Made by a program: the position numbers. 64,000 bases of DNA from a virus. How positions within the stretch are numbered: the stretch's first letter is position 1; each line of letters starts with the position of its first letter. This document shows positions 24,001-30,000 of this stretch, piece by piece. The stretch is from the IMG/VR virus record IMGVR_UViG_3300042273_000448; one strand, written 5' to 3'.

Positions 24001-27000
24001 AATCTTGAAAACTAGGAAAAACTCTCAAAATACTAATATAATATACACAGTTTTTTCATAATTTCTGGATTTTTCATATAAGTTATTGAAATCATTAGAT
24101 ATTCATAAAACTTGGTGGATTCCTAAGTTATTGAAATAGTTAGATAATTTATTTTATCCTCTTTTTTAGAGTTTTCCAGATGTTTTTATTATAAATGAGA
24201 AATTTAACTTGTAAACCTTAAAAATTCTTTGTTTACAATTGATACCGAAGTAGATAAATTATTTTATAAATAAGTTTAATTGATATTTGAATAGGTGGAA
24301 TTAAGAGTTTGGACTTGCTAGTTGGTTAAGAGCTAATTAGTGAGCGCTTGGTAAAATATTTCCGAGTGAGGACGACTTCTTCATAAAATGTTTGTCCCAT
24401 TGTCAATGACAATGCAAGATCCGCCCCTGAAGCAACCAAAGGGGATGTATGAATTTCACGCGAGTGACTTTTGTGTCAATTTGACTCATGCTAGGTCCAA
24501 TCCCTTCATGAGCCACCGGCATAAATGCCCAGCAGACGTTATCCTAAAGCCATCTGCTGGAGAGGATAGAATCCGACTGTACTAGTTTCTTGTAACGATT
24601 TTGATTTTTGCTAGTGTTCTTAGTGATCAAAATTTATTAACGGGAAAGGGAAGATCGTTTTGTAGATTGGGAGCATATGAATGCCCAAGAAGTTCAGATC
24701 AAACTAGACCATACCTGAACTTGGCTTAATCAACCAAACAGAACGTAGGAAAACATAAGGAACCTCGCCGCAATGCATACTGTTTCAAAGCTCTTTTGTG
24801 GGGTAATGAGAACGGGATGTGTTTGGCAGGAAATTGAATGTTTCTTCTTAGATTAAATTAGTCTAGGTAAGTCACGTTCAATTTCCTGCCGAATGCATTG
24901 ATAGAATATATATAAAAAATTTTCTATATTATTATTTTATAATTTATTATGGGTGGATTAGAATCTAAATTTGAAATCTAAAGCTCAATAGCAATATCAT
25001 CTACGAATACTGAATTTGATGTTTTCATTTGAATAGAATACATTTCAAATCCATTTGCAGCAACTATTTCTTCAATATTCTTAATCTTTTTTCTTCCAAA
25101 TAATATACTTGAAATATTGAGTTTTTTTGCTTTGACTGCTGTATTGTTGACTAGGATAAGTTTGGTGTCATGGGAAACTTGAAATGCAAAACCATCTTCA
25201 AGTGTGATTTTGATTAATGATGGTACTTTTTCTTCTTCGATTAGTAATACAGGGGAAAACCCTTTTAATGTAGTTAATTCAAGAAATTTTTTGTTTAGTT
25301 CTTTTTTCTTATAAACAAGATTTTTGAGTAGATCAATTCTGATTTTGAAAATGTTGTTTTTTCCTGCTTTGACAGTAACCATTGATCCCCTGTGAACAAG
25401 ACATGTTTTCATATTATAATTCCTTTCTAATTTGAATTATAATTATTTATGTGTTCATTCAAGATCAGTCTGCATTTTCAAGATAGTGATCATCATCAAT
25501 GTCTGCTAGAATCCCTCATACATCCTCATCTTCTTCTTTGTTTTTAAATAGGTCAACATCATCTTCAAAAAGTTGAGTATCAATAAGGAAACATAACCAA
25601 TAAAGAGCCGAGACAAGGTCATCCCCGGTGTCTGCGCTTGAAGAAAATTTTCCGTTTTTTTCAATGAATGTTGAAATTTGTTTAGCTGTTTCCCTATCTT
25701 TAACTATTAGTGATCCATCTTCAATGAGTTTCTTCATTGTAATAACAGCTTTTGTCTTTGATGAAGAAGTTGCTCTAATGCCAATCTCGTTTTCTTTGTT
25801 TCCTGAATTATAAAGGTTTGGGTTTTCAAAGACCCACCAAAGATTCTGTGAAACTGTGGATCCTTCAGCATTATTCTCAATACCGATAATAGCATCATTA
25901 TAGTAAATTGATAATCTATTAATGATAGAAGAAAGTTCATAGGTGTCAGTAACATTGGACTGGAATGTTGCTGCATTAACTAATTTTACTGGTTTAAATG
26001 AATCTATTCTATAAATTTGTATACAAGCATCATGAGCTCCCGATCCTTTAGACGGATCAACACCGATGAGATATTTTTCTCCATCTTTTGGTTTAAGATA
26101 AACCCTAAGTCTTTCATTAAGATCCATAGCAATGGGGTCTTCTAGAGTAGTGTTAATATATCCAATGGCTTCAGTGGAAACAACGGTATTTGATGACCCA
26201 AGAAACTCGACCTCAAATTCCTGGTTGAACTTCTGTATGTTTCCCATGTTTTTAATTTGTTTTTCTTTTCATTTTTTATTTCTACCAGGTATCATGTCCC
26301 AAGTGACTTTCATATGCTTGTATTCGTTTTTACTTGTTTCAGCTCCAGAATAAATTTCATGAAAGAGATTGAATACACCATTTGGAGTAGAAATAATAAT
26401 AATTTTTGCTTCATCAGAAGATGAAATTGCTGGATAGACTGAAGTATAAAATTCTCTAGCAATGTTATCTGAGACGAAGGCTAGCTCGTCGAGGAGAAGC
26501 ATTGAACAATTGTGTGATATTACACCATTTGTTCAATATGATTGTGTGTCTTGTACATTCAATGCGTCGAAAACTTCTATATCATCCCATTGATATTCTT
26601 TTTCTAATACTGTTGTTTTTGGAAAAAGAATATCACCAACAATAATATCTTTAGCTTCTTTAAAAGTAATACCATCAGACAAAAGAAATTTGTGATTATG
26701 TGTGCAATCTATAGTTTCATTGGTTGATAAATCAAATTTTATCAATGTTGATTTTCCTTGATTTATAAACCCATCAAATGGTTTAAATCCTTTGTGTGTT
26801 AATATTTCCATTACTTTCTTCCTATTGATCATCCTTCTGGTAAGTTTTTATCTTTATCATACATTTTTATTTCTTTTGTTTTTACATTATGAATTCAAAT
26901 AGTATTTTTTCTGGACTCTTTCTTTTTCCCTGTTCCTTTCAATCAACCATCTGGGATTTCATGATTTTTACTGATTTGTATAGTTTCTAATGTTAGGGGA

Positions 27001-30000
27001 TTATATATATGAATTTTACCCTTATTTGGGGCATCCTTTCCTATTCGCGAATTTGATATACGCTTTCGAGTTACTTCACTTCTTTTCATACCCCTATGTT
27101 TTTCTGCTGTTTTTCGAATTTTTTCAGGATTTCTATTTATTTTATCAACTCATTCATCTGATTTTTTATGACCCTTTAAAGAGTTACTTAATTTTTTATT
27201 TCTTTCTTCTGTAAATGTTTTATTATATCATGTATTATATTCTTCTAAATTCATGTTTGTAAATTTTAAAAGTCTACTTGTAGATATATTTTTTCTATGT
27301 TCTAAAGAAAGTCTTCTTCCTCTTAATTTATTTGATAATTTTTGTCTTGTTTCTTTACTTACTGGAGGTCTATTTTTAAGAGCTTTTATTTGTTTTTCCC
27401 TATATTCATTGTTTTTTCATCTTTCTTTCGATGATATAGAAATTAACTTTTTGGCTTTTGGAGTATGTTTATAATTTCTAGATTTTTCAGAAATGAGCTT
27501 TTTTGTTTTATCAGAATGTTTTCTGCCATAAAAGCCATTTGCTTCTCCACATAAAATACACACATTACCACCCAATGATAAATTATAGTTTGAGTTATCT
27601 TTAACAAACTCTTCATTCACAAGTTCCCTTTCCAATAATTCTGCATCTTCTTTATTATCAAACACCATTATAATTTCTCTTTTAAAATTTTCTGGTCCAT
27701 ATTTTTCAATAGCTCTTCTTATATATTTTCCAGACCCCAAATACCCATCATCCAAATCATTTGTAGAATGGAACCCTATATAGTATTTCCCATTAATTAA
27801 ATTTGTCGTTTTATACACCATATAATATTTTTTAGTATTTTTGAAATTCATTTCATCTCCCATAAATCTATTTATATTAGATGAAATTGCTTTTGTTTTT
27901 TCTATGGTTGTATAAAAAATATCTCCATTATCATCACACACACAAACTTTTGTATATTTGGGAACACAGGATCTCCCACGGAATGTGTCTTCAGTTGTTC
28001 CAGCAGTTTCAATTTTAGATCCATTTTCAAATTCAATGGAATTTTTGTTATATTCTATAACCCCAGGTTTTAATCAAAAAGGCAGCTCCTCATACATAAT
28101 CTTAATACGTCTAAGAAGATCTTTTGCTGAACTTGCTTTATTAGATGCAATTCCGATGAATTTATCAGAATTAAAAATTGCATATCAAAGAGCAAAAGCC
28201 CCTACTGTAGTTGAATTGTGACTCTTTATACCATTAGTATAATAACATTCCCCATCAACATCTAAACAATCATACATATTAGAAAATGTGTTTAGTTTTT
28301 CAATACTAGAAATTTCTATATCACCATTTTCTGTTTCTATAAAATTGCCTGCACTTAAATCTTTGACATAAATTTCTTTATTATTTGAAAATAAAATATG
28401 ATTATCTGCACATATTAATTCTATACCATTTGATAATGATACTTTATATTCATCATATTCAATAGTTTTGCCAACCCCAGAAAAATCTTTTCACCCTTCT
28501 GGGGTTCATATTTCATAATCTTCACAGAAACGCTTTTCAACAAATTTATCATCTATATTAAAAGAAGATATTGTTAATTTATCAAAAAATTCTCCAATAG
28601 TTAGTTCTTCCTCTATTCCAGTTTTTTTGTTTCTAATTTTTATTTTTGTGTCCCAAGAAACGCACTTTCCCGATTGTCTGCAGAACAAGAAAACCAAATA
28701 ACGATTGTCTTTACACATTTTAATCATTTTTTTCTGAAATGGGTAAAGAAGATCCCCTAATTTTTTCCTGCCACCATCGATAGTAACAATAGTAACAAAA
28801 TTAAGAAAATACAAAACATCTTCTGAACACCTAACAAGATCTGATATCATCTCAGGTGTATATTCATTTTCCATTCCTGGGGTCTTTACAAATTTATCAT
28901 CGTATCTAATTGACATATTAAAAGCCTTTTCATAGTTTGATTTATTTATATAAATATTATAAACATCAAGTGAATCATAAAATTCTGGAGGAATTTAACT
29001 CATGTCTGAAATCTTAAAATTATTTACAGAGAAAGAACAAAAATCAAAACATTTTAATGAAATCTCTACTTTGTTAGAGAATACAATTAAAACTATAAGA
29101 AAATTTAATCCTTCCTTTACACTAGAAGAGGCAATTTCTTATACTACTGGGGCACTAGGTACAATTGCAGATAATGATACAAATGGAATTTACCAAAAAC
29201 TCTCTTTGGGGTTATCAAAGAGAACTTGGGACAGATTGATTGCCAGAGAAATTGTAGGTGTTCAGCCTTTGTCTGGTCCTGTTGGCCTATATTATGCTTT
29301 GAGATATTACGCCAGTGGAACTTATGCTGGGGGAACAGATACTGAAGTTGGATTCAATAAGGCAGATAGCACCTATACTGGTTCCTATTCTACATCTGCC
29401 GGGGAATCTTTAGGTTCTAATACAAATATAGGATTAGGAATTGGTGATGATACTCTTATTAAGGAGTTGAATGTCAAGCTTGAGAAAAAACAAGCAGAAG
29501 CGGTTTCAAGAAAGCTTAGAGCATCGTTCTCTGAAGAGCTTTTTCAGGATGTTTTTGCTATGCATAGTCTTAATCTAAGAGAGCAAACATGGGATGCTAT
29601 TGCTAGAGAAATTGCTACAGAAATTGATCTTGAAGTTATTAACAAACTTGACACAGTAGCTACATCAAACTCTCTAGATTTTGCTACTGTTGCTGGCGAT
29701 AATAAGTCTGATAAGTACAATTCATTTGTCTCCTATATTATTACATTGGCCAATAGAATTGGAACTCTTACTAATCACGGGGTAGGAAACTTTGTAATTG
29801 CTAATGCAAATGTTTGTACTTGTTTAGAATCATCTCAACAGTTTGCTGTTTCTCTGCTTAACGATTTTCAGGATGATTGAGATAAGCGTGTATGTTTTGC
29901 TGGAACAATTAATGGAATGAAGATTTATCGAAATATTTTCTGGGATACAGATAAATATATTGTAGGATATAAAGGATCAACTGAACTAGATGCTGGAGTT

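Follow-up and report, generated by a model that had tools for sequence, protein, structure and literature searches.

In 2009, Dassa, London, Stoddard, Schueler-Furman, and Pietrokovski described "fractured genes" (PMC2677866), in which a host gene is split by a split intein and an endonuclease gene of the GIY-YIG or Vsr-like type lies between the two halves on the same strand; a gp17-like terminase locus from Lake Gatun is among them. Here, we analyzed a stretch of 64,000 nucleotides (nt) of viral DNA, IMG/VR record IMGVR_UViG_3300042273_000448 (the window), in which the gene for the terminase large subunit (TerL) occupies positions 28916 to 25447 of the minus strand and has the same arrangement with a GIY-YIG endonuclease. 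It is very probable that this is a fractured TerL gene of a T4-like phage that reads TGA as tryptophan, carrying a split intein and an endonuclease gene nested in its reading frame, with functional steps that we infer from the sequence.

The likeness to the fractured genes extends to a hairpin at the 5' end of the endonuclease gene, which often encloses TATAAATA, and to an overlap between the 3' end of the endonuclease gene and the start of the C-terminal intein half (IntC). This overlap spans 6-69 bp in the published cases and 1 nt or 22 nt in the window, depending on whether IntC begins at the ATG at 26811 or at the ATG at 26832. The Lake Gatun terminase locus has the same unusual break point, and its IntC of 122 amino acids (aa) contains all the N-terminal motifs except N1. 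In the published fractured genes, the N-terminal intein half (IntN) ends in a stop codon followed by 27-51 non-coding bases, whereas the window and 11 further lineages have no such stop. Judged by its predicted parts, the locus is a Dassa-type fractured gene that carries a TerL split intein of the AceL/GOS/Cat type, minus the stop codon and spacer after IntN. In-frame capture of the endonuclease is predicted by step IIIa of the model of Dassa et al. (PMC2677866).

Trans-splicing in vitro has been reported for AceL-TerL (IntN 25 aa, IntC 104 aa), GOS-TerL (37 and 115 aa), and the consensus Cat-TerL (30 and 104 aa; PDB entry 6DSL) (PMC11766414). The split intein of the window resembles these in its TerL host, its very short IntN, and its IntC of about 100 aa, and it resembles AceL and Cat in the use of Cys1 and Cys+1. 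It differs in that their IntN halves were published as fragments of 25-37 aa, whereas the IntN of the window runs into a 346-aa endonuclease.

Like the T4-family endonucleases I-TevI and the Seg proteins, a group with both intron-borne and free-standing members, the endonuclease of the window has a GIY-YIG catalytic domain joined to NUMOD3-type DNA-binding modules. The genes of I-TevI and mobE have a late promoter within a hairpin that sequesters the ribosome-binding site, and the endonuclease gene of the window is predicted to be arranged likewise; an account of this regulatory logic is also found in PMC2677866. Unlike I-TevI, Seg, and mobE, however, the endonuclease of the window is encoded within the reading frame of the very gene that it interrupts. 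A further difference concerns Aeh1 mobE in the split nrdA gene: as the work of Gibb and Edgell is cited in PMC2677866, the NrdA halves assemble without an intein, whereas the TerL halves of the window are predicted to be rejoined by protein splicing.

Gosselin, Arsenault, and Gogarten reported in a preprint (10.1101/2025.01.02.630785) that free-standing endonucleases invade the inteins of actinobacteriophages, TerL inteins included, and proposed a path in which indels lead to a contiguous intein carrying a new endonuclease, with in-frame capture of the invader as a prediction. Their cases include out-of-frame and antisense endonucleases inside contiguous inteins, and a relative of the window described below (L010) is of the same kind. 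Unlike the locus studied here, those inteins are contiguous and hold endonucleases of the HNH, Vsr-like, endonuclease-VII-like, or LAGLIDADG type at the usual endonuclease site; neither a GIY-YIG enzyme in frame with IntN nor an atypical split site is described there. In the literature that we searched, the original AceL-TerL, GOS-TerL, and Cat papers aside, we found no report of an in-frame IntN-GIY-YIG fusion; the in-frame intein endonucleases reported there are LAGLIDADG or HNH enzymes, and GIY-YIG enzymes are reported solely as separate genes between split halves. What is new here is a GIY-YIG enzyme that is predicted to be read as part of the IntN polypeptide at an atypical split site.

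Reading frames and inteins of the terminase gene

The window belongs to a T4-like phage with a G+C content of about 30%, and the genes for the gp23 major capsid protein (29002-30165, plus strand) and the gp20 portal protein (30704-32257, plus strand) lie nearby. Under the standard code, the minus strand from 28916 to 25447 fragments into many short open reading frames (ORFs). When TAA and TAG are taken as the sole stops, it resolves into two long minus-strand ORFs: ORF1, of 701 aa with TGA read as Trp (28916-26811, TAA stop at 26811-26813), and ORF2, which is open from 26847, has ATG codons at 26832 and 26811, and ends at 25447. The in-frame TGA codons at residues 244, 281, 589, 658, 674, and 696 of ORF1 and at residues 181 and 432 of ORF2 lie opposite Trp in homologues whose genes have no in-frame TGA, and because of this we ruled out the standard-code reading of the locus. 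Across the window, ORFs of 100 aa or more (six frames, overlaps counted) add up to 43.6 kb without and 67.5 kb with TGA as Trp. These data support the assignment of TGA to Trp in this phage. No UCA anticodon was found among the eight tRNAs of the window (11225-13302, minus strand). The use of in-frame TGA is uneven between genes, with 15 in TerL, 9 in the gene at 56391-57884, and none in many others. Some phages recode a stop codon mainly in late genes, and the uneven use in the window is consistent with this.

ORF1 encodes, in order, a first TerL extein, a contiguous intein (intein 1), a second extein, the IntN of a split intein (intein 2), a linker, and a GIY-YIG/NUMOD3 endonuclease. Extein 1 (aa 1-84, 28665-28916) ends in ...CRQSGK, the first half of the Walker A motif. 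Intein 1 is a mini-intein of 150 aa (28215-28664) placed between the GK and the ST of Walker A; with slashes at the splice junctions, it reads CRQSGK/CVSWDT...IKSHN/STTVG. It has Cys1, a block B of ...CADNH, the terminal ...IKSHN, and Ser at position +1, and the match to Pfam Intein_splicing is weak. In relatives, the Walker A site holds larger inteins (P0008, P0014, P0028, P0033, P0052, and L005); that of L005 has LAGLIDADG-like motifs, as judged by eye. Extein 2 (aa 235-316, 27969-28214, STTVGAF...TFRGRS) matches Pfam Terminase_6N at residues 235-314.

After ...TFRGRS, ORF1 switches to CVPKYTKVCVCDDNGDIFYT..., with the Cys1 codon at 27966-27968. The IntN of intein 2, of about 30 aa (CVPKYTKVCVCDDNGDIFYTTIEKTKAISS, 27879-27968, minus strand), begins CVPKYTKVCVCDDNGDIFYTTIEKTKAI... 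and is followed by a short linker and then by the endonuclease. From 28076 to 27419, this frame contains no stop codon of any kind, so the continuity of IntN and endonuclease is independent of the genetic code.

ORF2 follows directly. The TAA of ORF1 and the ATG of ORF2 at 26809-26811 form a TAATG overlap (26809-26813), and an AGGAAG lies at 26818-26823, 6 nt 5' of this ATG. Homologous IntC genes share the N terminus M-E/K/Q-I/V-L-T, which the protein read from 26811 matches. Because of these three features, ORF2 most likely starts at the ATG at 26811 rather than at 26832. The IntC of intein 2 then comprises 101 aa (26509-26811), reading MEILTHKGF...DCTHNHKF...VFDALNV...TNGVISHN, and it is followed by the 353-aa extein 3 (25447-26508) with Cys+1, the Walker B motif in CSMLLLDE, the remaining ATPase region, the Terminase_6C nuclease, and a TAA stop at 25447-25449.

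The residues expected of a splicing intein are in place. Cys1 of intein 2, which follows ...FRGRS in the window, is invariant across 15 aligned relatives; in block B (T-x-x-H, here DCTHNHKF), the His is invariant and the Thr nearly so; and in block G, ...TNGVISHN/CSMLLLDE, the His, the Asn, and Cys+1 are invariant. Block A lies in ORF1, whereas blocks B, F, and G lie in the 101-aa IntC, on two polypeptides read in different frames. IntN could be aligned to its counterparts in 14 related loci and to the N terminus of the contiguous intein of Nitratidesulfovibrio phage SRB7757. IntC, searched alone, matched the C-terminal half of Cat (CatC, 6DSL_B) over its residues 1-101 with E = 1.4e-9 and VidaL with E = 0.0085. 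A combined IntN and IntC profile, built from the 14 loci and the SRB7757 intein, matched 39 solved intein or Hint chains, among them CatC (7.6e-22), gp41-1 (2e-9), and VidaL (2e-9). Residues and homology support the assignment of intein 2 as a class 1 Hint-fold intein, and the distribution of its blocks supports a naturally split intein with the atypical N-terminal split site of the AceL/GOS/Cat-TerL type.

Both insertion points can be compared with an uninterrupted TerL. The protein encoded on IMG/VR contig L001 reads CRQSGKSTTVG and TFRGRAAAMLLLDE at the two places and includes the stretch RGRAAAMLLLDE. In silico removal of both inteins from the window gave a 519-aa TerL that aligns with the L001 protein without internal gaps and with 454 identical residues (88%). 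L001 marks both predicted insertion sites as exact empty sites. The spliced product unites RQSGKST (Walker A), MLLLDE (Walker B), and Terminase_6C, the features by which a T4-type gp17 is recognized. Inteins of the same family occupy at least four neighboring positions within the eight residues between RG and the Walker B DE (RGxS/C, RGxSxx/C, RGEPIN/C, and RGMSINFLL/C), and in SRB7757 and Campylobacter phages they also occur after DE (DE/CAF).

An earlier note on this DNA had proposed that TerL is fractured by an atypically split intein with a short IntN and a long IntC. The CatC matches of IntC and of the family profile, together with the empty sites of L001, agree with this, and the 39 solved chains found with the profile are in line with Hint-fold membership of the two halves. 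Its description of TerL-N as starting at 28916 and passing from IntN into a GIY-YIG/NUMOD3 endonuclease without TAA or TAG also holds. Two of its statements have to be withdrawn: the gene does not end at about 27330, because the first TAA or TAG is at 26813-26811, and the 584 bp said to lack a credible ORF encode the C-terminal DNA-binding half of the endonuclease, with NUMOD3 at residues 610-636; since ORF1 runs to 26813-26811, the supposed gap does not exist. Other statements stood in part. The Walker A motif assigned to TerL-N is present, but its interruption by the 150-aa intein 1 had been overlooked. For the second gene, given as 26832-25447, the end is as proposed, whereas the start at 26811 is likelier and shortens IntC to 101 from about 108 aa; the CTHNHKF block B, terminal VISHN, Cys, Walker B motif, and nuclease domain listed for it were all read in ORF2, the last with its Terminase_6C match.

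The predicted layout of the locus is neither a chance nor an assembly effect. JGI contig L163 (sample 3300042272) is 100% identical to window positions 32116-26807 and covers the IntN-endonuclease junction, the entire endonuclease, the ORF1 stop, and the TAATG. A sequencing error or stop that re-joins the halves, which the earlier note had considered, is not seen in this independent sequence. Logan contig L162 (SRR35175284) is 100% identical to positions 26504-22016, and each flanking gene product is present on 12 contigs. A look-up of three ORF products near the junctions, translated with code 11, returned no database record. The JGI contig ends at 26807 and the Logan contig at 26504, each 4-5 nt inside a border of the IntC segment, and no repeats of at least 17 nt near these two positions were found within the window. 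One possible cause of these contig ends is a population in which the endonuclease or intein is present in some variants and absent from others.

A nested endonuclease gene and its expression signals

The endonuclease gene comprises 346 codons from the ATG at 27851 (26814-27851, minus strand; MNFKNTKKYYMVYK...), and within ORF1 it extends from MNFKNTKKYYMVYKTTNLINGKYYIGFH... through ...PEGWSIGRK. The GIY-YIG catalytic domain spans approximately 27552-27827, and the NUMOD3 repeats and the C-terminal DNA-binding part follow down to 26814. The protein matched phrog_314 ("homing endonuclease") with 9.5e-48, Pfam NUMOD3 in two stretches (2e-10, the best at ORF1 residues 610-636, 27009-27089), and Pfam SegE_GIY-YIG (0.0017). 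When a profile of 22 endonuclease sequences was searched against the PDB, I-TevI alone was matched, through both its catalytic domain (1LN0, 1.1e-4) and its DNA-binding domain (1I3J, 7.9e-4). The GIY...YIG motif reads YMVYK...KYYIGFH. In the 22 homologues, Glu-68 (in ERELV) is nearly invariant and Asn-84 (in YN), which lies opposite Asn-90 of I-TevI, is invariant; a DKINRNPEKIRKTAEKHRGMKRS module is common to the homologous endonucleases. Together, these matches support the classification of the protein as an I-TevI-like GIY-YIG homing endonuclease with a NUMOD3-type DNA-binding region.

Chance alone would place 15.6 copies of the T4-type late promoter motif TATAAATA in the window, which has 33. 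Twelve of these precede the start of a long ORF on the same strand by 3-50 nt, namely TerL, gp23, and ten others. The copy assigned to TerL (28943-28950, minus strand) is 26 nt upstream of its start codon. An internal copy (27869-27876, minus strand) falls within the codons S-N-I-N-R; its x-I-N-x phase (nnT-ATA-AAT-Ann) is the sole phase of the motif that is free of stop codons. A Shine-Dalgarno sequence, GGGAG (27857-27861), lies 5 nt before the endonuclease ATG, which bears out the late promoter and Shine-Dalgarno sequence that had been attributed to the endonuclease earlier.

These elements are enclosed in a predicted RNA hairpin (27850-27887, minus strand) with the arms AUUUCAUCU (27879-27887) and AGAUGAAAU (27850-27858) and the internal TATAAATA in its loop. 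The 3' arm masks the 3' end of the Shine-Dalgarno sequence as well as the A and U of the endonuclease start codon. The hairpin folds with -12 kcal/mol (z = -4.5), and none of 200 shuffled sequences was as stable. Counterpart stems with compensatory changes are found in the related loci L096 (UUCGUC/GACGAA), L087 (CCUCAUC/GAUGAGG), L104, and L111. Among the fractured-gene endonucleases, hairpins were described in 15 of 16 cases, 10 of them enclosing TATAAATA, and the cassette sits in the untranslated spacer of 27-51 nt (PMC2677866). The cassette of the window is of this described type; as no stop follows IntN, its promoter, hairpin, Shine-Dalgarno sequence, and ATG are also translated, as the linker between IntN and endonuclease.

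Related loci, proposed working, and competing explanations

Related loci were drawn from Logan, IMG/VR, and JGI or ENA metagenomes, in part by a search with three sequences of the IntC family, the nine-sequence alignment being too divergent for a pattern search. A stop-free TerL-N-IntN-GIY-YIG ORF was found in 12 distinct DNA lineages, the window and 11 metagenomic ones (L005, L006, L087/L089, L090/L091, L092/L093, L094, L095, L097/L099, L102/L103, L104, and L108). L005 and L006 have the same architecture in genes without in-frame TGA. The distance from Cys1 to GIY ranges from 32 to 53 aa, with eight different values. Of 13 fused loci, 12 have an in-frame Met 1-12 residues ahead of the GIY strand, and 9 have a TATAAAT motif within the 3' part of IntN; TATAAATA with at most one mismatch, always in the same stop-avoiding phase, is present in 9 of 12 (the window and 11). 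The start of IntC, located in 13 related loci, falls between 26 nt before and 8 nt after the endonuclease stop, and its frame differs from that of the endonuclease in all of these with the exception of L087, whose endonuclease gene seems to have undergone a frameshift.

With a 218-aa query (extein, IntN, and endonuclease N-domain), 1.84 billion cluster representatives were searched exhaustively by phmmer. The best 150 matches included about 46 cluster representatives (50% identity) with all three parts in one polypeptide and 88 free-standing endonucleases; the free-standing homologues listed begin at the internal Met of the window (query positions 75-84). The predicted IntN-endonuclease fusion is not peculiar to this genome and is widespread in metagenomes. 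An exact-match scan of IMG/VR with the IntN-endonuclease junction gave no match, and a search for cultured phages carrying the fusion found no example: in PA5oct and MIJ3 TerL is uninterrupted, and in Atu_ph04 and L008 a free endonuclease lies upstream of an intact TerL.

Contiguous states also occur. In P0115, of 764 aa, a single frame runs through IntN, the roughly 85 aa that remain of a truncated GIY-YIG domain, IntC, and TerL-C; it appears to descend from the fused arrangement by re-joining. L010 (nt 2-2710; IMGVR_UViG_3300020045_000633) has an uninterrupted TerL ORF of 902 aa, in whose intein a low-complexity stretch of about 250 residues results from reading an HNH endonuclease gene (frame 2, nt 603-1361) in another frame; this HNH enzyme carries the DKINRNPEKIRKTAEKHRGMKRS module, as the GIY-YIG enzymes do.

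TerL is divided among three genes in L005 and L006 (proteins P0002 and P0003). The middle one has the IntC of the first split intein at its start and a short second atypical IntN (...CVSGDTMVTVKDKETGEIKK...stop) at its end; a free-standing GIY-YIG gene lies between the halves of this second pair in L006 and none in L005. In Campylobacter phage NCTC12673 (NC_015464.1, approximately 72885-74222; L003, 3986-5323), an unannotated ORF encodes a long IntC fused to TerL-C (MYEVLTPNGF...NNFVSHN/CAFID) directly after the neck protein gene, with no TerL-N adjacent, and the Fletchervirus and Firehammervirus matches (H1-H25) look like it. These cultured Campylobacter phages appear to have an atypically split TerL with its halves at separate loci.

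We propose that a free-standing I-TevI-like GIY-YIG gene entered the loop after the first 30 or so residues of an intein placed before Walker B, an insertion that would have left a very short IntN and an IntC of 101 aa. A late transcript from 28943-28950 would yield the polypeptide TerL-N-intein 1-extein-IntN-endonuclease, and a transcript from the internal promoter, which would not include the 5' arm of the hairpin, would yield the free endonuclease. Translation of IntC-TerL-C would be initiated at the ATG at 26811, either by reinitiation or from its own AGGAAG. By homology to characterized members of the family, intein 1 would splice in cis, and IntN and IntC would associate and trans-splice to give the 519-aa TerL, with release of IntN-endonuclease bound to IntC. 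The endonuclease presumably cuts the intein-free TerL alleles of co-infecting relatives and in this way spreads the whole element. As to the open frame itself, one may speculate that it carries ribosomes from TerL-N to the start of TerL-C or that a stop is simply not needed.

The locus looks like a half-captured state, with fusion at the 5' junction and a break remaining at the 3' junction, and P0115 looks like the completed one. The family would then provide natural intermediates for the long-standing model that a free-standing endonuclease first invades and splits an intein and is captured in its frame at a later stage, as the same family holds stop-separated, out-of-frame, and re-joined contiguous forms. 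The family may also supply diverse TerL inteins of the atypically split type in which large cargo is tolerated at the split site, here the unusual N-terminal site used by protein engineers for semisynthetic labeling.

Several observations weigh against this account. Among the relatives, L096 and L112 have a stop after IntN, and in L007, L098 and human-gut relatives, L101, L111, and L114, the endonuclease overlaps out of frame; as these forms exist, the fusion is not obligatory. Trans-splicing with a tail of 385 residues of IntN plus endonuclease on TerL-N is without known precedent. Of the alignment to known short-IntN terminase inteins suggested in the earlier note, the IntC part succeeded (CatC, above), whereas the N-terminal half of Cat (CatN, 6DSL_A), although second-best of 177,635 PDB sequences for the 30-position IntN profile and in the right register, has E = 0.75; the homology of IntN and CatN is not significant by itself, IntN being too short. 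The internal promoter lies 17 nt before the endonuclease ATG, compared with 20-50 nt at most other genes of the window. Finally, the catalytic Arg-27 of I-TevI has no clear counterpart, as the alignment has a gap in that helix, where the basic residues in GSGKYIRRA are candidates.

A stronger claim is that the in-frame fusion is itself a selected functional state, with GIY-YIG as a true domain of the IntN fragment, acting either through a ribosome relay or as an IntN-endonuclease:IntC homing enzyme; we hold this to be possible and somewhat doubtful. The frame is open in 12 lineages despite linkers of eight lengths (32-53 aa), about 46 fused clusters at 50% identity stand among the best 150 matches, and wherever TATAAATA is present (9 of 12) it keeps the stop-avoiding phase, although the fused lineages are mutually related and such counts are therefore not independent events. 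The nucleotide motif AAAYTCATC is read in two phases across the fused lineages with the ORF still open, which suggests compensated frame changes, but the motif, being complementary to the start-codon region, could also have arisen by convergence. In every related locus where the IntC start was located, it lies at the endonuclease stop or beside it, and a relay of ribosomes over approximately 1 kb to the TAATG restart would give stoichiometric halves; the AGGAAG of IntC itself means that such coupling is not needed. In P0115, a contiguous intein that presumably still splices accommodates a GIY-YIG segment in frame at this loop. On the other side, a complete cassette for autonomous expression (promoter, hairpin, Shine-Dalgarno sequence, Met) has been kept, which argues that the endonuclease is mainly made on its own, and relatives manage with a stop or with overlap out of frame. 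Were the fusion selected, this would be a natural split intein whose N-piece consists of block A and a homing endonuclease, and the family would be a living series of an intein gaining a new endonuclease domain at a new site.

It is very improbable that the two halves are one gene, joined by a programmed -1/+2 frameshift or separated by a sequencing error, which would make intein 2 contiguous with an embedded endonuclease. ORF2 is open from 26847 and overlaps the end of ORF1 in the -1 frame, and P0115, L010, and the SRB7757 mini-intein are contiguous relatives; however, a slippery heptamer of the X XXY YYZ form is absent from the overlap, the identity of L163 to the window is 100% across the stop and the ATG, and the offset from endonuclease stop to IntC start varies in length and frame among relatives. 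Fourteen loci have a conserved ATG exactly at the IntC N terminus, a position without Met in the contiguous SRB7757 intein, and members of the family are natural trans-splicers (PMC2677866, PMC11766414). We give equally little credence to a decaying, non-functional TerL of a pseudogene or defective phage, or to TGA codons that are true stops. Such decay would fit the fragmentation of the region under the standard code, the lack of a UCA anticodon among the eight tRNAs of the window, and the contigs of two other assemblies that end at the IntC borders. It is at odds with TGA codons opposite conserved Trp in homologues free of in-frame TGA, with the gain in summed ORF length, and with splicing residues and endonuclease motifs that are all intact; moreover, the spliced product aligns without gaps, at 88% identity, to an intact TerL, and L005 and L006 show the same architecture without in-frame TGA. 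The trans-splicing fractured gene remains the reading that we prefer.

Flanking sequence and other genes

Directly downstream of TerL lies an ORF of 144 aa (24978-25412, minus strand; MKTCLVHRGSMVTV...) that is conserved in L001. Its start appeared Hint-like by eye, and this was rejected, as the protein had no match in Pfam, PHROGs, or the PDB. The adjoining stretch of approximately 1 kb (23975-24977) has no ORF under either code and is about 70% identical in DNA to its counterpart in L001; it gave no credible Rfam match, and its folding energy is not unusual (z-score of -0.8).

Elsewhere in the window, six minus-strand genes are free-standing mobile nuclease-like or have no assigned function. 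Those at 11695-12690 and 37527-39479 had no Pfam match, and that at 6080-7474 encodes a DUF7487 protein. The genes at 16935-18239 and 56391-57884 are paralogues with YGEEEGT-type repeats, each with an N-terminal zinc-finger-like motif. The gene at 5076-5546 encodes a stand-alone SegE-type GIY-YIG domain protein (Pfam E = 3.4e-29).

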